Source: Candidatus Woesebacteria bacterium GW2011_GWA1_39_21
GTDB lineage: Bacteria; Patescibacteriota; Microgenomatia; UBA8517
Assembly: GCA_000993685.1 (NCBI GenBank)
Contig: LBWP01000006.1
Span: forward strand, 5,356-69,355
Direction: 5' to 3'
DNA: 64,000 nucleotides
Part shown: in pieces, positions 3,663 through 42,513 of the stretch
Position numbering within the stretch: position 1 is the first letter of the stretch
Layout of the letters: every line of letters starts with the position of its first letter
Notes under the pieces: generated by a model
Seen by the model: only the letters and a program-made list of their open reading frames with translations
Databases searched by the model: none
What the model was told of the DNA's origin: nothing
Translations under genes and position numbers: made by a program

Positions 3663-6357
3663 TTTTAAAAAGGAAGGTCTAAACATCGAACTGCCAAACT
3701 TTGCAAAAGTGGCTCCACAACTTGAAAAAAGTGCCGGAATTATTCTAATTGGCACACTAATTCTTTTGAGTCTTTTGGCTTTCGCCTATTTCTATTCAAA
3801 GGATTTAATTCTTTCATACAACGATTCTCGGGCTCACATGGATATGGCGCGACTAATTATCGACAACTTAAAACCTGGGTTTGCTCAACTTGGTGGAGTT
3901 TGGCTTCCGCTGCCACACCTTCTTATGCTTCCACTAGTTTGGAATGACTGGATGTGGCAAACAGGCCTTGCCGGGTCGGTATTTTCGATGTTTTTTTATG
4001 TCGTGTCCGGTATATATGTATCCAAATTATTGGCATTTGTTGTTAAGGATAAATTTTCTGTTGTTATTTGTACACTACTTTTTGCTTTAAATGTGAATTT
4101 GCTATATATGCAGTCGACACCGATGACGGAACTTACTTTACTTTCATTCTCTATTGCCGCTACTTATTATTTGTTGCGTTGGGTTCAAAGTGACAAACTC
4201 ACAGATTTCCTACTTCTTAGTCTGGCAGTTCTTTTGGCGACGTTAGTCAGATATGACGGATGGATGTTGTTTTTATTGACTGCTTTGAGTATCTTTATCA
4301 TTCGTCTACGAAAGGTATTAATTTCTTTAAAGGAAAAGCCTTTTTTTGTAAAAGTTAGAATTGCGTTAACTAACAGTAGTTTATGGGGTATTTTGTTAAT
4401 GTATGGACTTTTGGCTGGTTTGGGAATTGCTCTATGGGTTTTATGGAACTGGGCGATTTTTAAAGATCCTCTGTTTTTTTTAACTGGACCGTATTCTGCG
4501 AAAGCTCAACAAGCGGTGATTAGTGGGGCGGGAAAACTTTTTACAGAAGGAAACATTTTACTTTCCGTCTCCGCTTACTGGTGGGCAATGGCCGATAATG
4601 TAGGTTTGTTTGTTTTTTTATCCGCACTGATAGGTTTTTTAATTGCAATTAAAGAGGATAAATTTAACGATACATTTGTTGTACTACTGACACTTCTTGC
4701 ACCGATTTTCTTCCACATATCATCTCTTTATGGTGGTAATTCAGTGCTTGTACTTCCTGAATTGAAAATTAATGTTACAGAAGGACTTAAAGGAACATTA
4801 TTTAATGCGCGATACGGTTTAATGATTTTGCCAGCTGTTTCAGTATTTACCGCGTATTTAATCAAAAAGGGAAATTTTATTAGGTGGCTGGTTTTAGTTC
4901 TTATTCTCTTTAGCTATCTGATGATGGCAAAGGAGGCGTATGTGATTGACTTGATCGATGGGCAAATGGGGTCAAGTTCGCTAAGGGTTGGTGATGTAAG
5001 CACCTGGCTAAAAGAAAATGCACCCGGCAAAGGTCTGATACTTACCGCACTTTCATACAATAACGCACTTGCATTTAGTACGGGTTTTGATTTAAAAAGA
5101 TTTATTCACGAGGGCACAGGAAAATACTGGCAATCTGCTTTGGAAAATCCACAGGAGTATTCGCAGTGGATTGTTATGGCCAATGGTGACGTCGGAGATC
5201 CTGTTTACAACGCTTTAATAAAAAACAACCATTCAAACTTTCTAAAATATTACGATCTTTCGCAAAAATTTGATTTTTTGAATGTATATAAAAGAAAAGA
5301 AGTCCCGAAAAACTTTGTCTACATCCATGACGAACAGTTTAAGGTTGACGATGCAAACCTTAGATTTATTGGGGTAAATTCTTACGATTTGATTTACCGT
5401 TCAACAGGTGAGATAGCCTCCACACTTTCATCTGCAAAAGCCAGTGGATTTGAAGTTGTTCGTCTCTGGGTTTTTGGCGAAGGTGACTTTAATGTGCTGC
5501 AACCAAAGCCGGGAGAATACAATGAAGCCTTGCTTGATAATCTGGATTATATCTTAGCAACGGCGGGAAAACTTAACATGAATGTTATCTTAACACTATC
5601 AAATTACTGGGAAGCTTACGGTGGTGTAAGGCAATATTTGAAATGGGTTGATTTACCTAATGACAAACCATCGGATTTGGATAGATTTTTTACCGACAGT
5701 CGTGTCAGAACGATTTACAAAAATTATGTCAATGCAATTGTACTTAGGAAAAATACTTTGACGGAGATTAACTATAGAGACGACCCAACCATTATGACGT
5801 GGGAACTTATGAATGAACCAAGAAGTTCATCGTTATCTACAGCGAACGTTGTCAACGATTGGTTTTCCGAAATGACAAGCCATATCAAATCTTTGGATAA
5901 ATATCACATCGTAACGACCGGGATAGAAGGACATTTTGACAACTTGTCCATAAATCCATACACAACGGGTCCGACAATAAATGATGTAAGTAATAATGTA
6001 AGTATTGATGTGTTGTCAGGGCATTTGTATTTGGACTATTTTGATCCATCAGTTAGTGCAAATAACTTCTCGATTGTTAACCTTTGGACAGCATTTGCAA
6101 AAAATGCAGGTATGCCGTTCTTTATTGAGGAAGTTGGTTTTTCAAAAAAACCTGATGATAATGGTGGAATTGATCGATATACTCTTTATGAAAACTTATT
6201 GGAGTCAGCAAGAAAAAACAATCTTCAGGGTTTAATTCTTTGGAATTGGGCTTTAAAGACTGATGACAGTTTTGGAATTTCGCCGCTTGATCCTGGTGAT
6301 GCGGAACTGATTCAGCTTTTCAAATCCTATTCTGAAAGGCTGAAAAACGATGTATAA
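3646..6357 (+). CDS. fusion protein: N-terminal ArnT/PMT-like GT-C membrane domain plus C-terminal glycoside hydrolase family 5 (mannanase/cellulase-like) domain
   Basis: N-terminal ~480 aa are polytopic with DSRAHMDMARLI...GGVWLPLPHLL (GT-C loop-1-like). C-terminal ~400 aa carry the GH5 acid/base motif WELMNEPR, a candidate nucleophile in FFIEEVGF, and the SGHLY motif. Confidence 0.7.
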   Translation: MNMKISFKKEGLNIELPNFAKVAPQLEKSAGIILIGTLILLSLLAFAYFYSKDLILSYNDSRAHMDMARLIIDNLKPGFAQLGGVWLPLPHLLMLPLVWNDWMWQTGLAGSVFSMFFYVVSGIYVSKLLAFVVKDKFSVVICTLLFALNVNLLYMQSTPMTELTLLSFSIAATYYLLRWVQSDKLTDFLLLSLAVLLATLVRYDGWMLFLLTALSIFIIRLRKVLISLKEKPFFVKVRIALTNSSLWGILLMYGLLAGLGIALWVLWNWAIFKDPLFFLTGPYSAKAQQAVISGAGKLFTEGNILLSVSAYWWAMADNVGLFVFLSALIGFLIAIKEDKFNDTFVVLLTLLAPIFFHISSLYGGNSVLVLPELKINVTEGLKGTLFNARYGLMILPAVSVFTAYLIKKGNFIRWLVLVLILFSYLMMAKEAYVIDLIDGQMGSSSLRVGDVSTWLKENAPGKGLILTALSYNNALAFSTGFDLKRFIHEGTGKYWQSALENPQEYSQWIVMANGDVGDPVYNALIKNNHSNFLKYYDLSQKFDFLNVYKRKEVPKNFVYIHDEQFKVDDANLRFIGVNSYDLIYRSTGEIASTLSSAKASGFEVVRLWVFGEGDFNVLQPKPGEYNEALLDNLDYILATAGKLNMNVILTLSNYWEAYGGVRQYLKWVDLPNDKPSDLDRFFTDSRVRTIYKNYVNAIVLRKNTLTEINYRDDPTIMTWELMNEPRSSSLSTANVVNDWFSEMTSHIKSLDKYHIVTTGIEGHFDNLSINPYTTGPTINDVSNNVSIDVLSGHLYLDYFDPSVSANNFSIVNLWTAFAKNAGMPFFIEEVGFSKKPDDNGGIDRYTLYENLLESARKNNLQGLILWNWALKTDDSFGISPLDPGDAELIQLFKSYSERLKNDV

Positions 6358-9671: not shown

Positions 9672-11222
9672 TCAATTATATAACCTTACTTCGTAATCTT
9701 CCCCCAACGATTGGCAACTTCCAATTTTTGTGAAGTCGTTGCTTTGGAGATAGCGCTCTATCTGACCACAGGATTTCATCTCTCGTGTTTTTTTGTTTTC
9801 GGGTTCCTGTGGTTTTTTTGCAAGAACCGCGAGCATGGGTTTTTGCGAAACTTGAAGCTCACCTGCAATAATTTTGCCGTATTTACAGCTATTGTGGATT
9901 CCCGGTTCTTCTGTAATAAATGAGCTGGCAGGTTTTAAATCGCTTCTCACTAAATATAACGAAGCGTTATTCCAAAGAAATTTATCGTACGAAAGACGCC
10001 CAACAAAGATTGACTTTCCTGGGACATTGTTCGTTAACCGGCGGCAATCCGATGTTTGCAGATCAATTTGATAACGCGCAAAATTATATCGAGGTACAAG
10101 TATGTATGATACTTTAACATACCAAGCCGCTAACGGTAAAAATGTCAAAAGTATAATGAAAAGCTTCGTTTGACTGAATAAATTTAGTGATTTGTTGAGA
10201 AGCACCCAGATGATACTGACAGCAAACCATAAAGGAACTGCGTGGAGCCAGTCGGATCGACCGATAGCGTAGAGCACAAACACGAGAGGATAGGATAAAA
10301 GGATTACACTACTAAGAAGTTTAGAAAGATGCTGGTTACCAAGCGAAGAAATTGCTATTTTTTTTGAACTTCTGATCAGAAGATATACGTAGATTACGAT
10401 GCAAAGGTAAATAAGTATTTCCGGACGTAACGGGTGTTTTGGAATGGGAAGCGGTAAATCTCTGTAGCTGGTGGTTAAAAATACTGGTATAACAAAGATA
10501 AAATCAATCGCGCTTTTCAAAACATTAAGCTTTTGTAAATAGAATAGCAATAAAGATAAAGATAAAAGATACGCTAAAAGTGAAAGGCGGATGTACCGGA
10601 AAAGTGTAACTAAAACAAAAGCATTTTTTTTCGTTGTGAGTCGGAAAGAGATGAAGATCAAAAAGTAAAGTCCGTGAAGAAATAACATCCAATCCCAGCG
10701 AAACCAAACGCTGGCAAATGTAACGGCGAAAGCAAAGAAGAGTGGTTTGATACTTTGCCGTTTAATGTAGTTTAAAAGCAAAAGAACATTTAATAATAAA
10801 AGCAGTAAAGAGAATGCTTCACTGCTTTCAAAAATTCTGATAACGGCTGATATAAACAAGATAACGATAGCAAGTTGGCAGTACAATCCAACTGTTTTTC
10901 GATTGCGAAAACCTAACATTAGCAGAATTGAAGTTGTCAGCAAAATGTAAAAAAGTGATTGAATAATGTTGTTTTGAATAATTGAAAGATATGGAAAGAT
11001 TTTTCCAAAGACAAGAAAAATACCTGGAGGATAGACAACTGAAAAGTCTCGATACGGAGTTAGTCCTCGTACGATATATATCTTAGAAAGAATTCGCAGA
11101 CTGCCATCAAAAATATCAACTTCGTAGCTGCCGATAATAAAAAGAAAGATTGTATATAGATAGAAGAAAAACGAAAGTAAGAAGAAATATTTTGCAATCT
11201 TGTTAATTGTTTTTTTATCCAT
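9672..11222 (-). CDS. polytopic integral membrane protein, possible additional GT-C type glycosyltransferase
   Basis: 516 aa with many TM helices. N-terminal loop YRDFSVVYPPGIFLVFG weakly resembles the GT-C loop motif. No firm assignment. Confidence 0.35.
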   Translation of the reverse strand: MDKKTINKIAKYFFLLSFFFYLYTIFLFIIGSYEVDIFDGSLRILSKIYIVRGLTPYRDFSVVYPPGIFLVFGKIFPYLSIIQNNIIQSLFYILLTTSILLMLGFRNRKTVGLYCQLAIVILFISAVIRIFESSEAFSLLLLLLNVLLLLNYIKRQSIKPLFFAFAVTFASVWFRWDWMLFLHGLYFLIFISFRLTTKKNAFVLVTLFRYIRLSLLAYLLSLSLLLFYLQKLNVLKSAIDFIFVIPVFLTTSYRDLPLPIPKHPLRPEILIYLCIVIYVYLLIRSSKKIAISSLGNQHLSKLLSSVILLSYPLVFVLYAIGRSDWLHAVPLWFAVSIIWVLLNKSLNLFSQTKLFIILLTFLPLAAWYVKVSYILVPRYNFARYQIDLQTSDCRRLTNNVPGKSIFVGRLSYDKFLWNNASLYLVRSDLKPASSFITEEPGIHNSCKYGKIIAGELQVSQKPMLAVLAKKPQEPENKKTREMKSCGQIERYLQSNDFTKIGSCQSLGEDYEVRLYN

Positions 11223-20649: not shown

Positions 20650-21911
20650 ATGATACCCACAAACTTAACTATTAAAAAAGCCTATGCATATGTAATTGTC
20701 GTCGCTTTTCTTTTGCTTTTCCCCTTTGGACAACTGCTGCGGATCAACTTAACAGCACTGGGTTTTAATTTTGGAATAGTTCCTGCCGACATCCTTGCGC
20801 TTTTCTCGCTTCCGTACTTGTTCTTGAATAATGACATCCTCCCCGCCTTAAAAGGCGGGGTTTCCCCAAGGAGGATGACATATAAGCAAAGCTTAACTCT
20901 GTTTGCACATTTTCAGAGTTCAATTCATCTTATCTAAAAAGAATCATCTTTTTCTTTATTGCAAGTTGGGTTTTTTCATTGATTGTTTTTCGAACCACGG
21001 CAATCGTTTACGGTTTAATGTATTTAATCCGGCTGGTATCGTATATCTCGTTTGCATTTCTTGTCAACTATCTATGCGCTTCTGAAAGGATTAAAAAAAA
21101 TATTTTGAACCTGACCTTGGTTGTGCTTGGTTTTTTTATGCTTCTTGGAGCATGTCAGTTTATTTTTTATTATGATTTGCGTGATTTATACTTTAGCGGT
21201 TGGGACGACCACTACTATCGATTTGTCTCAACAACCCTAGATCCGGGTTACGCTGCAGTTGTTTTAAATATCGGGCTGGTTTTGGTTTTAGCAAAAAATC
21301 TTATTAAATCACGATACGTAAAGATACTTTTCACAGTTTTATTTGTTACCGCAGTCATCCTGACTTTTTCCCGAGCAGGGTATCTGACTCTTTTGGCGCT
21401 TCTTTTGTACAGATTTAAAAAACACTTTAAAAAAATTCTCTTGGTAGCCGTCGTCGTTGTTATATTTTTACTGATAGTTCCGAAACCGAGGAGTGCGGGT
21501 GTCGAGTTGTTAAGAACGTTTAGTATCAGCTCAAGAGTTGATGATTACAAAAAAACCGCAGAAATATTCTTTAAACACCCTCTTTTCGGCGTTGGATATA
21601 ATAATTTGTGTTTATTCCGCGTGATTAATGGTGAAAACAATATCGCTTCGCATTCCTGTTCGGGAAGTGACTCGTCACTTCTGACGATTTTGGCAACGAC
21701 CGGCGTGGTCGGATCAATGATCTTTTTCATATCTTTTTACAAAATCATAGGGCTTTTGCCAAAAGATGAGTATGGCCACATCGTGAAGATGGTTATTATG
21801 GTCTTGCTTGTAAGTTCGCTTTTTAATAACACGCTCTTTTTCAATTTTAATATGGGGCTTTTCGCGCTATTTTTCGGACTTTCGAGGAAAACCTCTACTC
21901 TTGAAAATTAA
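20650..21911 (+). pseudogene. Wzy/WaaL-like O-antigen ligase/polymerase family gene split into 95-aa and 310-aa ORFs by a 95-nt palindromic insertion
   Basis: Both parts are polytopic. The C-terminal part has the Wzy_C-type motif FSRAGYLTLLALLL. Removing nt 20830-20924 joins the two ORFs in frame with no intervening stop. Confidence 0.55.
20830..20924 (+). mobile_element. 95-nt miniature palindromic repeat element (MITE-like), copy A, inside the Wzy-like gene
   Basis: A 57-nt block and a 37-nt block are identical to the reverse complement of 30259-30376. Contains nested hairpins (ccccgcc ttaaaa ggcgggg, flanked by atgacatcctcc / ggaggatgacat). Confidence 0.6.
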
Positions 21912-22696: not shown

Positions 22697-22798
22697 ATTG
22701 AATTCATCTGCGAAATCCACGGACTTTAGTCCGAGGGTGAAGCAAGAATCCAATCTCGTCGACAAAATACCATGGGCTTTAGCCCGTGGTAGTTTATT
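22697..22798 (+). repeat. 102-nt dispersed repeat, copy 1 (direct-orientation partner at 30374-30475)
   Basis: About 90% identity to 30374-30475 over about 100 nt. Contains the hairpin ccacggacttt agtccg. Confidence 0.6.
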
Positions 22799-23636: not shown

Positions 23637-24395
23637 ATGAAAGCTAAGTTTATATGTCTTAACCTTTGGGGTGGCGGGATACTTATCGACAATATTTTAG
23701 ATTTTCTTTCTATTGAAAAACCAGATATCCTAGCGGTTCAAGAAGTTTACAAAGAAGCCGATTCTTCAAAAAACATCAAAATATATAATTCTCTTGACTT
23801 AATAATCAATAATTCTGGACTCAAATATTTATCGTTTGCACCAACCTACAAAACTCTAAAGACTAGTGTAATTGTTGAACACGGAAATGCCGTCTTTAGT
23901 AGATTTCCAATAATTTCGACAGATGCCACTTTTTATGATTTACCCTACGACGGGAATTTTAAGGAACCAGAAAAAGATTTTTCTTCTTGTCCACGTAATC
24001 TCCAACACGTTGTGGTTCGAATAAATGAACGGATTATCAACATTTTTAACACTCATGGAATATGGGGATTTGACGATGAAGATACTGAACGGAGACTAAA
24101 TATGAGCAATAAAATACTAGAAAAGACGAAAGACTTTAAAAATGTAATCTTGGCTGGAGATTTTAATATTGATATGAAAAGTCAAACCATAAAAAATATT
24201 GAAAAGAATCTAAATAACCTTTTTTTAAAAGAATTTGAATCTTCTTTTAATCTCAAATACAAGAATGGCGCCATTTTTTCAAAGCTAGCCGTAGATACCG
24301 TTTTTGTAAGCCACGACATCAATATTATAGAAAAACGTAGTTCTAAGGCCGACGTTTCAGACCATTTACCGTTAATCATGACGTTTGAAATCTAA
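23637..24395 (+). CDS. endonuclease/exonuclease/phosphatase (EEP) family protein
   Basis: ILAVQEV..., GDFNI..., SDHLPL motifs typical of the EEP fold. Confidence 0.75.
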   Translation: MKAKFICLNLWGGGILIDNILDFLSIEKPDILAVQEVYKEADSSKNIKIYNSLDLIINNSGLKYLSFAPTYKTLKTSVIVEHGNAVFSRFPIISTDATFYDLPYDGNFKEPEKDFSSCPRNLQHVVVRINERIINIFNTHGIWGFDDEDTERRLNMSNKILEKTKDFKNVILAGDFNIDMKSQTIKNIEKNLNNLFLKEFESSFNLKYKNGAIFSKLAVDTVFVSHDINIIEKRSSKADVSDHLPLIMTFEI

Positions 24396-24530
24396 TCGAT
24401 AGCTCCGACTCCGCTTACCGTATGATTTTCCCAAGGCAAAAGTAAAAACGTTAAAAACATTGGCTAGAACTCGGGAATGACTTTATTTCTTGAGGAAAAT
24501 TGGGGTAAACACAAAACCATTTCGCTATTG

Positions 24531-26612: not shown

Positions 26613-28340
26613 ATGTATTTATATGCTTCAGGAAAAAGCAGAATTATTGCTTACGAACGCGCAGCCGATGCGGTTGAACATCTTTCTTCTGAAGCTAAGG
26701 ATCTTTACGACGAGGGCAAGCTTGAAGATATTCCCGGAGTTGGGGCTTCGATCGCAGCCAATCTATCGGATATTTTTAAAACTGGTAAGTCTAAACATTT
26801 TGAAGCATTATTAAAAAGTGTTTCTCCTGCTGTTTTTGAACTTATCCCGCTTGAAGGAATTGGACCCAAACTAGCTTACAAATTGGTTAACGAACTTAAA
26901 ATCAAACCACCCGACGCGATATCCAAATTAAAAAAATTAGTCTTAAAAGGTGAGATTGCCAAACTTGAAGGCTTCGGTGAAGATTCGCAAGCAAGCATCT
27001 TGAAGGCAATAGACGATTACAAAGAAAGTGGTAACCGCCACTTATTAAATTATGCCGAAAGTGTGGCCAACCTGATCGTTGATTGGATGAAAAATGATGC
27101 TAGCGTTACGCGAGTCGACACCTTGGGCAGCCTGCGAAGAAAAGTTTCTACAATTGGCGATATTGATATTGCCTGTTGTACAAATGACGTCAGTAAAACA
27201 ATCGAACACTTCGTAAATTATCCCGATAAAAAGCGAGTATTAGACAGGGGAGACAAAAAAGCATCGATTATTATCCCTGGAAACATTCAGGTTGATCTGA
27301 TGGCTCAAAGGCCTAATGCCTACGGAGCGCTTTTACAGCATTTTACAGGTAGCAAGCATCACAACATCGCACTTCGTGAATATGCACGTACAAAGTCGAA
27401 AAGTTTATCTGAATACGGGATTAGAAATCTAAAAACAAAAAAACTGAAAAAATTAGCAAGTGAAGAAGAATTTTACCACAGCCTATCTCTTTCCTACATT
27501 CCACCGGAGCTTCGTGAAGATACCGGTGAAATCCAGGCAGCCGAATCGGATTTCAAAAACCAAACACCCGGGTTACCTAAACTAATTGGGCTCACCGATA
27601 TCAAAGGCGATTTACAAATCCACTCAAACTTTGACATTGAGACAAGTCATGACCTTGGGATATCCTCATATCGCGTAATCATTCAGAAAGCACAAGAGCT
27701 TGGTTATGAATATCTTGCTTTCACCGACCATAATCCAAGCAGATCGAAACACAGCGACAAGCAAATTATTGATTTAATAAAGCGAAAGAAAGAAAGTATT
27801 GAAAAGTTAAATTACTCATTAATGCATAACAACAAAAGAGTAATATCCGTATTCAACAGTTTGGAAGTTGATATCAAGTCAAATGGTGACTTGTCGATTC
27901 CGGAAGCAGCTTTTGATTGCCTCGATTTCGTGTTGGTATCGATCCATTCAGTTTTTCGATTATCGAAAGAGTTGATGACTAAACGAGTACTACAAGCTTT
28001 AAATCACCCTAAAGCGAAGATCTTTGCTCATCCCACGGGTAGAAAATTGAACGAAAGGGAAGGGGTAGAACTTGACTGGGACAAAATATTCGACTATGCA
28101 AAAGAAAATAACAAGTTTATTGAAATTAATGCAGATCCAATGCGTCTTGACCTTCCGGACTATCTTGTGAAAGACGCCGTGAAACGTGGAGTAATGTTAA
28201 CGATGGGAACTGATGCTCATCATGTTGACCACATGATCAACATGCGGTATGCGGTGTATGTTGCCAGACGCGGTTGGGCCCAAAAAGTTAATGTCCTTAA
28301 CACACGACCTTTTAAAGATGTCAAGATGTTGTTAATTTAA
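26613..28340 (+). CDS. DNA polymerase X family protein with C-terminal PHP phosphoesterase domain
   Basis: Pol-beta-like nucleotidyltransferase motif GSLRRKVSTIGDIDIAC; RIIAYERAA N-terminal helix-hairpin region; C-terminal PHP-like histidine motifs (HSNFD..., FTDHNP). Confidence 0.8.
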   Translation: MYLYASGKSRIIAYERAADAVEHLSSEAKDLYDEGKLEDIPGVGASIAANLSDIFKTGKSKHFEALLKSVSPAVFELIPLEGIGPKLAYKLVNELKIKPPDAISKLKKLVLKGEIAKLEGFGEDSQASILKAIDDYKESGNRHLLNYAESVANLIVDWMKNDASVTRVDTLGSLRRKVSTIGDIDIACCTNDVSKTIEHFVNYPDKKRVLDRGDKKASIIIPGNIQVDLMAQRPNAYGALLQHFTGSKHHNIALREYARTKSKSLSEYGIRNLKTKKLKKLASEEEFYHSLSLSYIPPELREDTGEIQAAESDFKNQTPGLPKLIGLTDIKGDLQIHSNFDIETSHDLGISSYRVIIQKAQELGYEYLAFTDHNPSRSKHSDKQIIDLIKRKKESIEKLNYSLMHNNKRVISVFNSLEVDIKSNGDLSIPEAAFDCLDFVLVSIHSVFRLSKELMTKRVLQALNHPKAKIFAHPTGRKLNEREGVELDWDKIFDYAKENNKFIEINADPMRLDLPDYLVKDAVKRGVMLTMGTDAHHVDHMINMRYAVYVARRGWAQKVNVLNTRPFKDVKMLLI

Positions 28341-29987: not shown

Positions 29988-30026
29988 ACCAACAAGTAGA
30001 CTTAGAGCAACTAAGAGAATTAAACA

Positions 30027-30055
30027 TTGACAAATTTGGCTAATCATATTTAAAT
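30027..30055 (+). promoter_or_regulatory. candidate sigma70-like promoter (perfect TTGACA -35, 17-nt spacer, TTAAAT -10-like hexamer) placing a transcription start at the ATG of a 31-codon hydrophobic ORF (30062-30157)
   Basis: Read directly from the sequence; no SD, so a leaderless arrangement is implied. Speculative. Confidence 0.2.
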
Positions 30056-30258
30056 GTTTGCATGGAAGGTACAGTAGGTATCGTTGTTTTATTAGTTTTC
30101 GCCTTTTTAGCAATCGCTATTTTATATTTCGCAAATAAGTTCACCCACAAAAGGTAAGCTATTTTCCTGCTCCATAATATTATAACAGCGTTCAAGAAAA
30201 CCCAACCCTTCAGGGTGGGGATGACCCGCCTGCTTAGCTGCGCAAGCTAGCGGGCAGG

Positions 30259-30376
30259 ATTGAACTCTGAAAATGTGCAAACAGAGTTAAGCTTTGCTTT
30301 TGATAAAATCTTAAGCACGCTTATATGTCATCCTCCTTGGGGAAACCCCGCCTTTTAAGGCGGGGAGGATGTCATT
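30259..30376 (-). mobile_element. miniature palindromic repeat element, copy B (inverted relative to copy A; carries an extra 23-nt internal insert)
   Basis: The 57-nt and 37-nt blocks are identical to 20830-20924 in reverse complement; intergenic location. Confidence 0.6.
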
Positions 30377-30475
30377 GAATTTCTTTGCGAAATCCACGGA
30401 CTAAAGTCCGTGGATGAAGCAAGAATCCAATCTCGTCGACAAAATACCATAGGCTTTAGCCCGTAGTAGTTTATT
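30374..30475 (+). repeat. 102-nt dispersed repeat, copy 2; directly abuts and overlaps by 3 nt the end of palindromic element copy B
   Basis: About 90% identity to 22697-22798; contains the perfect hairpin ccacggactaaagtccgtgg. Confidence 0.6.
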
Positions 30476-30520
30476 CTTGTATGAAAATATATTAAGTTAT
30501 ATCATTGACATGAAGCTGTT

Positions 30521-40038: not shown

Positions 40039-40073
40039 GACAAAATACCAGGGGCTTTAGCCCGCAGTTTATT
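40039..40073 (+). repeat. partial third copy of the 102-nt dispersed repeat (3' portion)
   Basis: gacaaaataccaggggctttagcccgcagtttatt, compared with gacaaaataccatgggctttagcccgtggtagtttatt in copy 1. Confidence 0.45.
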
Positions 40074-41813: not shown

Positions 41814-42083
41814 TTGAGGGGGGTGATTAAAATGGATGGAGTGAAAGTTGGCATTGTAACGCACTACTACGAAAAAATTAAAGTTGCCATAATTTCTGTG
41901 GAATCTGACTTAAAAGTTGGAGATAAAATTAAATTTGTCAGAGGCGGTGAAGATTTATTCGAACAAATAATCGATTCGATGCAGGTTGAACACAAAAACA
42001 TTGATCCAGCGATAAAAGGAAATGTGATAGGATTAAAAGTCGAGAATGAAGTTAAAGAAGGCGCTGAAGTTTATAGGGTTTAA
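41814..42083 (+). CDS. hypothetical small beta-barrel protein
   Basis: 89 aa; weak resemblance to translation-factor domain-2-like barrels (VGDKIKFVRGGEDLFEQIIDSMQVEHKNI). Confidence 0.3.
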   Translation: MRGVIKMDGVKVGIVTHYYEKIKVAIISVESDLKVGDKIKFVRGGEDLFEQIIDSMQVEHKNIDPAIKGNVIGLKVENEVKEGAEVYRV

Positions 42084-42513
42084 GAACTCTACTAAAAAAA
42101 GAAAAAAACGAAGGAAATCCTCCAGTGCGGTGGTTTGGGAAAAAGCAAAAGATATCCAAACACGGATCGCTCATTTAATCCGCTTATCACACCTTCCATT
42201 TGCACCCGAAAAAATCAGTTGCATGCGCTCGTACAATTCAAAATCAAGAGCCTATGCGAGGATTTGGGGTCTATCAAAAGTTTGGCAGTTATCTCTAAAT
42301 TTAAAGCCATCTTACGTTATCGAAGTTCTTTCGGAAAAATTCGATGGTTTACCTAATGATAAAAAGGATGAAGTACTCTTACACGAACTTGCTCATATCC
42401 CGAATAACTTTTCAGGGAGTTTGCTGCCACATATCAGACACGGAAAAAGAAGCTTTAGTAAAAAAGTAGACAGGCTTGTTCAGTCTGTAAAATTAAATTT
42501 AAAAAAACTATAG
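42046..42513 (+). CDS. putative HExxH zinc metallohydrolase (YgjP/DUF45- or SprT-like) with basic N-terminal tail
   Basis: HELAHIPNNFSG resembles the YgjP HELCHLxExNHS motif. N-terminus KKRKKRRK suggests nucleic-acid affinity. Overlaps the upstream ORF by 38 nt, so the start is uncertain. Confidence 0.4.
   Translation: MKLKKALKFIGFKNSTKKRKKRRKSSSAVVWEKAKDIQTRIAHLIRLSHLPFAPEKISCMRSYNSKSRAYARIWGLSKVWQLSLNLKPSYVIEVLSEKFDGLPNDKKDEVLLHELAHIPNNFSGSLLPHIRHGKRSFSKKVDRLVQSVKLNLKKL

Follow-up and report, generated by a model that had tools for sequence, protein, structure and literature searches.

Remnant of a probable PATE-like hairpin element in a Wzy/O-antigen-ligase-like gene of a Woesebacteria genome

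Introduction

The defining features of MITEs are terminal inverted repeats and target-site duplications. REPs are 20-40 nt long and have a 5' GTAG that is conserved; REPINs are doublets in inverted arrangement. Rickettsia palindromic elements (RPEs) are repeats of ~100-150 bp which often lie in frame in unrelated genes and are translated with them, and which are also found between genes (reviewed in PMC10969869). On the side of the insertion sequences (IS), RNAs from the 3' end of IS1341-type tnpB carry a right-end (RE)-like tetraloop, an 8-bp stem closed by a UUCA loop or UUUA variants of it, and the same feature is present in HgcC and in an RNA derived from a haloarchaeal palindrome-associated transposable element (PATE) (Gomes-Filho et al., PMC4615843). 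The Thermococcus transcriptome has HgcC copies in transposase genes and inside unrelated genes (PMC4247193). How does a split gene of a Woesebacteria genome relate to these elements? The gene lies at 20650-21911 of a stretch of 64,000 nt (the window) from contig LBWP01000006.1 of Candidatus Woesebacteria bacterium GW2011_GWA1_39_21, and a short palindromic sequence with a second copy in the same window sits in its middle. A preliminary description, made from the letters of the DNA, took 95 nt of it (20830-20924) for a MITE-like element that either had inactivated the gene by inserting or acted as a switch, with precise excision restoring the gene. The reading that we prefer, and consider probable, is that these 95 nt are left over from a PATE-like element which derives from an IS200/IS605 (IS1341/tnpB-type) ancestor and behaves like RPEs, and that the copy in the window has decayed or possibly been mis-assembled.

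The interrupted gene

The 5' part of the host gene (20650..20829, + strand), taken from the list of open reading frames (ORFs), encodes the first transmembrane segments up to ...SLPYLFLN, and the 3' part occupies 20930..21911 on the same strand. Two ORFs are found here, in the layout that had been reported: an upstream one of 95 residues (20650-20937), which enters the element and stops 13 nt past 20924, and a downstream one of 310 residues, the longest of the 3' part, which runs from a TTG at 20979 to 21911 and carries a Wzy_C domain (Pfam, 55 bits (55.2) on the C-terminal part, cut-off 31.7). Judged by sequence, the host is a polytopic member of the Wzy_C/O-antigen-ligase-like family, a ligase or a polymerase. 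Are these two genes or one? In silico removal of 20830-20924 joins the frames without a stop, as the preliminary description had it, giving a product of 388 residues and not the 372 announced. That description had also proposed a comparison of the joined protein with Wzy models. The score is no better (54.5 vs 55.2 bits for the C-terminal part alone), because the model spans the C-terminal domain only, whereas full-length homologues from Microgenomates/Woesebacteria (~390-405 residues) typically cover ~90-100% of the joined protein across the match list, and this makes it one gene. All 13 aligned homologues (35-52% identical) are continuous across the site and have no insert, which upholds the placement of the element inside a single Wzy/O-antigen-ligase-like gene.

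What, then, splits the gene? Its best homologue (P0001, 438 residues) is identical to the window gene except for a stretch of 50 residues at the junction, which holds the translated repeat. Residues 1-60 of this intact protein are the product of window 20650..20829, which also aligns with the N-termini of the 13 homologues, and its C-terminal 326 residues are identical to the product of the 3' part. At the DNA level, two contigs of sister assemblies that encode P0001 (L001 and L002) are 99.9-100% identical to window 10650-31829 by BLAST and differ from it by two indels only: the window is short of 55 nt at 20929/20930 and of 82 nt at 26638/26639. Further contigs (L003-L010) were found through the product of a neighbouring gene. 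They come from Rifle-type groundwater, from at least four datasets: two re-assembled PRJNA268031 runs, three ANAN16 scaffolds, one JGI metagenome and three more ENA assemblies. The same population is thus represented by nine independent assemblies (99.8-100% identical), in which all contigs that reach the site carry the long form. There the element measures 141 nt by homology between copies (AATGACATCC...GCTGTTATAAT), is in frame and free of stops, and the gene is one ORF of 438 residues. An AlphaFold model of P0001 (pTM 0.87) predicts the host fold with pLDDT >90 and the insert (residues ~61-107) with pLDDT 50-60.

At the end of the remnant, the sister strains have 41 more bases of the element than the window. 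The junction (20929..20930, no strand assigned), placed by BLAST of L001 and L002 against the window, by the L001 sequence at 10150-10400 and by L003-L010, is where the window alone lacks CCCACCCTGAAGGGTGGGGTTTTCTTGAACGCTGTTATAATCAGAAAATTTTATC. These 55 nt comprise a left-end (LE)-like second hairpin, a TTAT border and the host codons Q-K-I-L; in all, 14-19 nt of host sequence beside the hairpin were removed. ATC microhomology (TTCATC/TTTATC) flanks the junction. The split arises from this deletion, which is what shifts the frame, and not from insertion of the element, which leaves the gene of the sister strains whole. Provided that the deletion is not an assembly error, the window gene is a pseudogene in this strain. 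Its function would have been lost, and slippage promoted by the hairpins may have caused the deletion.

At an otherwise unchanged locus, one sister contig (L004, from ERZ909589) has the loop of the second hairpin flipped (CCCCACCC-TTCA-GGGTGGGG vs -TGAA-), an inversion such as palindromes undergo.

Anatomy of the element

The repeat shared within the window consists of two blocks, each 100% identical to the second copy (copy B) on the opposite strand: 20830-20887 matches 30319-30376, and 20884-20924 matches 30259-30299. No match of either kind is expected by chance. Copy B has 23 extra nt between the blocks. The homology noticed at first is therefore real, and its limits have to be moved. The element-derived sequence reaches 20929, since the next hairpin module begins with TCATC, and homology to copy B and to the intact 141-nt copy (L001-L010) delimits a truncated remnant of 100 nt, the 95 nt plus TCATC (20830..20929, + strand). 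Copy B (30179..30376, - strand) is full-length, intergenic between htpX and gatC, and measures 198 nt instead of the 118 first given to it; it consists of the family core of 111 nt with nested inserts of 30, 23 and 34 nt.

This core (N-ATGAC...TTATAA-N) comes from the alignment of 15 distinct copies and ranges from ~105 to 111 nt. In the orientation that resembles an RNA, it reads TTAT, 17 nt, an 8-bp hairpin with a UUCA loop, a spacer, an 8-bp hairpin with a UUUA loop and 10 nt ending in TCAT. At the Wzy locus both hairpins lie on the strand opposite to the gene, as CCCCACCC-UUCA-GGGUGGGG and CCCCGCCU-UUUA-AGGCGGGG, each preceded by an A-run. Read in the sense orientation of Wzy, T-runs follow the hairpins, one of which was called terminator-like. 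Nested inserts of 21 to 87 nt occur in the core at two hot spots. The remnant contains the terminal hairpin, or RE-like end (module 1; 20831..20881, + strand), defined by its fold and by the 15-copy alignment: an outer stem ATGACATCCTCC/GGAGGATGACAT encloses CCCCGCC-TTAAAA-GGCGGGG (20841-20860), which on the opposite strand is the 8-bp stem with the UUUA tetraloop, followed by the 10 nt ending in TCAT. Next to it lies a nested insert of 30 nt (module 2; 20884..20913, + strand), missing from the 111-nt core copies in that alignment, whose AACTCTG (20895-20901) pairs with CAGAGTT of the core (20914-20920). A unit of 24 nt (AAGCAAAGCTTAAGATTTTATCAA) is present in one to three tandem copies (L148 ~290-400, L144, L150, L158, and copy B at 30296-30318) and is an internal expansion hot spot.

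Is this structure maintained? The nested hairpins of the preliminary description hold up: for the 141-nt element in its intact form the folding energy is -55.8 kcal/mol (z = -5.95). Across the 35 predicted pairs 97.7% of the cells are paired, with compensatory changes at 11 pairs (in module 1 at 6:48, 7:47 and 19:24); none of 500 shuffles reached the observed pairing, and slid controls were 40-50% paired. The informative covariation is that of the outer stem and the second hairpin, because the search pattern had fixed the inner part of the first.

The assignment to MITEs does not survive this comparison. There are no terminal inverted repeats, the ends ATGAC... and ...TTATAA not being inverted repeats of each other, and no target-site duplication was seen across the flanks of 14 distinct copies; because both are missing, the element is not a classical MITE. 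What the copies share is a TTAT (once TTAC) that adjoins the LE side in all 14-15 copies examined. Aligned with MAFFT to its homologues, the intact Wzy protein shows exactly 45 inserted residues, leaving LFLNN|NQKIL, the loop length of 13 out of 13. This translates into ~135 inserted nt and would make TTAT (ATAA on the sense strand) host sequence.

Copies in other genes

How can a palindrome lie in a gene without closing its frame? The 141-nt element has two open frames out of six. A chimeric query with the peptides of the six frames retrieved eight further host proteins from unrelated families, including an aminotransferase, a PMT_2 and a GT4 protein, two of the eight being labelled Woesebacteria by their sources. 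One of them, an alpha/beta hydrolase, uses the same frame as Wzy and the other seven use a frame of the opposite strand (YNSVQENPTLQGGDELNSDMSSSLGKPRLLRRGGCH); in this search, then, 7 of 9 coding copies are oriented opposite to the Wzy copy. The DNA of these loci has the core without the 30-nt module 2 of the window, and the ten residues ENVQTELSFA encoded by module 2 are missing from the peptides that core copies give in the -2 frame. An exhaustive profile search with a peptide of 36 residues against 1.84 billion representatives matched 43 cluster representatives, and its hosts include glutamate racemase, GT2, a methyltransferase, DUF4012, a second Wzy_C protein and peptidyl-tRNA hydrolase (Pth). 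Elements within host proteins measure 105-156 nt. Compared with the solved Pth structure 4qt4, Pth has a clean insertion of 36 residues that parts two contiguous segments, with borders that are ambiguous by one residue. Altogether, in-frame read-through is predicted from intact ORFs in more than 20 unrelated proteins, which would contain junction peptides of host and insert such as LFLNNDILPALK or ...GGCH-host. A word-index profile search with the combined alignment of both frames gave 9 matches, mostly short spurious ORFs.

At the DNA level, a pattern scan of JGI metagenomes found 23 loci at ~17 distinct sites, five or six of them inside long read-through ORFs and the rest intergenic, that is, ~70% of sampled sites intergenic and ~30% coding. 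A scan of viral contigs for the RE-like end returned no match. A scan of the contigs of a genome collection with CATCCTCCCCGCCNNNNNNGGCGGGG returned at least 118 unrelated high-GC hairpins, with the element in none of the matches listed, the pattern being too GC-generic for this purpose. As the host genomes are assumed to be mostly coding, the ~30% of sites in coding sequence suggest a selection filter, through which coding copies would survive if they offer two open frames and a length divisible by three. The idea that nested inserts are multiples of three in coding copies alone was dropped, as intergenic copies, too, have inserts that add up to 21 and 87 nt. A small intron, an intein and programmed frameshifting were likewise set aside: copies are found in either orientation and also outside genes, and the sister strains read through the element.

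One copy, without the second hairpin, forms the C-terminal ~50 codons of an ORF (L146, Ga0075624_117, ~4640-4745) whose upstream part we take, by eye, to be hexapeptide-repeat acetyltransferase-like. If true, here the element would supply a new protein tail.

A link to HgcC and IS200/IS605

Where does such a two-hairpin unit come from? At gathering thresholds, Rfam finds three tRNAs only in the window. With relaxed thresholds, HgcC (RF00062) matches every copy tested (10), over the full model, with 27-35 bits and in a constant orientation. The match at the Wzy locus lies at 20818-20956 on the minus strand (32.6 bits), the remnant being antisense to the HgcC-like orientation, and that of copy B at 30228-30388 on the + strand (33.2 bits), which is its HgcC-like orientation. 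The E value is 5e-6 when the 261-nt stretch of the locus is searched and 7e-4 to 1e-3 over the whole window, where the element copies are the only non-tRNA matches with E <= 0.001. The alignment is not restricted to stems: it shares the linear motifs GAUGA..UGAAC after the first hairpin and GGAA-CCCCGCC.UUUA.GGCGGGG-AGGA.GUCA around the second.

These features can be assembled into a probable history of the locus. The element would be non-autonomous and consist of the two ends, left and right, of an IS of the IS200/IS605 family (IS1341/tnpB-type) joined together. It may move as single-stranded DNA ('peel and paste'), with a Y1 transposase acting in trans, and insert 3' of TTAT. A copy with the 30-nt nested insert would have landed antisense in the Wzy/O-antigen-ligase-like gene, in a short loop after the second membrane helix. 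The gene gained 45 codons in frame and stayed whole at 438 residues, as it is in the nine sister assemblies, because the length of the insert is a multiple of three and two frames are stop-free. A later deletion between the ATC microhomologies would then have taken the LE-like hairpin with the adjoining 14-19 nt of host, shifting the frame and leaving the ORFs of 95 and 310 residues. In the family at large, the genic copies that survive are the in-frame, stop-free ones, predicted to add ~35 residues to many unrelated proteins. One can go further and imagine an undescribed, widespread PATE of the candidate phyla radiation (CPR) with an HgcC/omega-RNA-like scaffold which, if transcribed, would yield a guide-like RNA (its 3' flank matching the insertion site) and be preserved or spread by TnpB in trans, while dozens of proteins with housekeeping roles or of the cell envelope would gain ~35-residue segments in minimal-genome organisms; this we regard as a long shot.

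Alternative explanations

Several points weigh against the reading that we prefer, some concerning the split of the gene and others the origin of the family. The split is perhaps an assembly or curation artefact, in which case the organism would carry the intact in-frame element of 141 nt and the gap would come from contig joining across the repeat. Such an artefact falls somewhat short of an even chance. In its favour, the deletion is seen in the window only, and all nine other assemblies, the two re-assemblies of PRJNA268031 included, have the long form. Neither ORF product of the split gene has a record in a collection of 15 billion proteins (exact look-up), and the same look-up found no record of the 575-residue PolX or of a 903-residue protein of the window. 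Assemblers also break or make chimeras at this repeat: four contigs (L007-L010) end within the element, as expected of multi-copy DNA, and in L155 (Ga0209727_1011128, positions 1-220), most likely an assembly chimera, the left flank of the copy at the L146 locus is joined through the element to the right flank of the Wzy copy. Moreover, the start of the deletion coincides exactly with a module boundary. Yet the window is otherwise clean, being collinear with three assemblies and without indels over 22.3 kb (35762-58059), and compared with two over the other 21 kb. Microhomology at the junction is typical of genuine slippage deletions, and other near-identical contigs differ pairwise by similar deletions with an anchor in the element (L152 vs L141, 44 nt, flanks 99.9-100% identical; L150 vs L148, 95% identical), while the L146 copy stops after GAGTTCAATTC and is without the LE-like hairpin. 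Between a real minor allele and a join error, the balance tips slightly towards the real allele.

Could the family instead be a generic REP- or MITE-like hairpin repeat unrelated to IS200/IS605, moved by an unknown enzyme or by recombination, its HgcC likeness being convergent? The scores do not reach the HgcC gathering cut-off of 50 bits, so they indicate resemblance and not membership, and GC-rich hairpins in AT-rich DNA may inflate them. A full-length IS with tnpA/tnpB sharing the ends was not found in 10 window ORFs of TnpA/TnpB size (Pfam gave no transposase, two ORFs without match and housekeeping proteins for all others) or among the annotated genes of L131-L137, and the genome-collection scan pattern was non-specific. 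The spacing used for comparison is that of IS608, where cleavage takes place 10 nt 3' of the RE hairpin and ~19 nt 5' of the LE hairpin. TTAT could also be a part of the element and not its target, as the loop length of Wzy and the Pth insertion make two cases only. Because of the sub-threshold HgcC scores, the missing tnpA/tnpB partner and the non-specific scan, we infer the PATE origin rather than assert it. REP, BOX, SPRITE and many other bacterial repeat families are terminator-like hairpins too (PMC10969869). Still, we find an unrelated origin unlikely. The HgcC match spans the full model, including the linear motifs outside the stems, and recurs in every divergent copy, with nothing else but tRNAs reaching its E value in 64 kb. 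The anatomy fits the ends of IS200/IS605 and not MITEs: two like hairpins, neither terminal inverted repeats nor target-site duplication, a constant border tetranucleotide and 10 nt past the last hairpin.

The original proposal of a recent inactivating insertion or excisable switch can draw on the open frame regained by deleting 95 nt and on the 100% identity of the copies, which speaks for recent movement, and is nonetheless highly improbable: the intact element leaves the frame unbroken in the 438-residue ORF of nine other assemblies, none of which has the element-free allele that was to be sought; 95 nt are not a natural unit of a family whose core has 111 nt and whose remnant extends to 20929, and restore the frame by arithmetic alone because 150 - 55 = 95; the restored protein would miss 4-6 ancestral residues, among them the QKIL of P0001 and of the homologue P0002, and have a shorter loop than 13 of 13 homologues; and a reversible switch is unsupported because the deletion cannot revert.

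Other features of the window

Copy B is adjoined by a member of a second two-hairpin repeat family, found by repeat search as families D1 and D2 (D1, 30374..30475, + strand). Other D1/D2 copies lie at 22697-22798 (91% identical) and, in part, at 40039-40068. These repeats are ~102 nt long, with two 8-9-bp hairpins and TTTA/TAAA loops; one copy stands beside tRNA-Thr, and L144, L152 and L158 have copies next to the main element too. No HgcC match was obtained for them, and they probably represent a sister hairpin element. The 530-nt spacer between htpX and gatC (29988-30520) is nearly all made of nested hairpin modules, namely copy B with two extra inserts and D1, and when folded as single-stranded DNA it is far more stable than its shuffles (z = -5.2).

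The 82-nt deletion specific to the window (region 26613-26660) takes the true N-terminus (MDNIQIASLLRDIAACYQIANEDKNKF) of a PolX-family polymerase. The ORF left behind begins further upstream, at an ATG followed by 8 unrelated residues, and there is no microhomology at the junction. The same PolX gene is also split in L010, into a piece of 76 residues and the rest. Contig L155 lacks the 42 nt of window 24377-24418, a stretch that spans the 3' end of a gene with an Exo_endo_phos domain. Finally, an ORF at 42046-42513, among RuvC, PGM and PGI, carries a 'putative phage metallopeptidase' domain (PF18894, 69 bits).

Relation to described elements

What follows for annotation and for the biology of these bacteria? 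The locus should be annotated neither as two genes nor as an excisable switch; it is a decayed or mis-assembled copy of an otherwise intact gene. Beyond it, the family breaks assemblies, yields chimeric contigs and seeds local deletions. The genomes of CPR bacteria (Patescibacteria) are tiny, and mobile DNA is considered scarce in them. In a limited check of the literature, no description of palindromic or MITE-like elements in CPR/Patescibacteria/Woesebacteria was found, so that the family would be a new PATE-like and RPE-like member in a lineage from which, it seems, no such element is on record.

How does this member compare with its relatives? MITEs such as Correia, ERIC and Nezha are also small, non-autonomous and able to give in-frame fusions or terminator-like hairpins; the absence of terminal inverted repeats and target-site duplications sets the family apart from them. 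REPs and REPINs, which depend on RAYT, share short hairpin repeats that are IS200/IS605-related, mostly intergenic, often paired and maintained in structure. In contrast to them, the present family has its two hairpins in direct orientation within a unit of ~110 nt, and no GTAG.

The likeness to PATEs of the IS200/IS605 group lies in the anatomy: two similar subterminal hairpins are present, terminal inverted repeats and duplication of the target are both lacking, and a short sequence, TTAT, is constant at one end of the copies. To our knowledge, frequent in-frame read-through in proteins has not been reported for PATEs. The 8-bp stems with UUCA/UUUA tetraloops are shared with a haloarchaeal PATE, HgcC and sotRNAs (PMC4615843), the last being omega-RNA-like RNAs of tnpB 3' ends, and to this the sub-threshold HgcC matches over the full length can be added. 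Thermococcus HgcC copies, too, are found inside unrelated genes (PMC4247193). The differences are that PATEs and HgcC have been described in archaea and a few bacteria, whereas the present family belongs to CPR/Patescibacteria, scores below the Rfam cut-off and has no cognate tnpA/tnpB in the ORFs scanned.

In its relation to proteins, the family parallels the RPEs. Its elements of 105-156 nt are predicted to lie in frame in more than 20 host proteins (in Wzy, alpha/beta hydrolase, aminotransferase, PMT_2, GT4, GT2, glutamate racemase, methyltransferase and Pth, among others) and are also found between genes. Insertion into essential genes such as that of peptidyl-tRNA hydrolase would extend the 'selfish DNA inside proteins' pattern of Rickettsia to a second reduced-genome lineage. 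RPEs are analogues only, the hosts here being free-living or episymbiotic groundwater CPR (Microgenomates/Woesebacteria) and not Rickettsia. A further difference is that the present family resembles the ends of IS200/IS605, to which we know of no link from RPEs, and through its resemblance to HgcC it connects the pattern of insertion within proteins to the biology of IS200/IS605 and TnpB.

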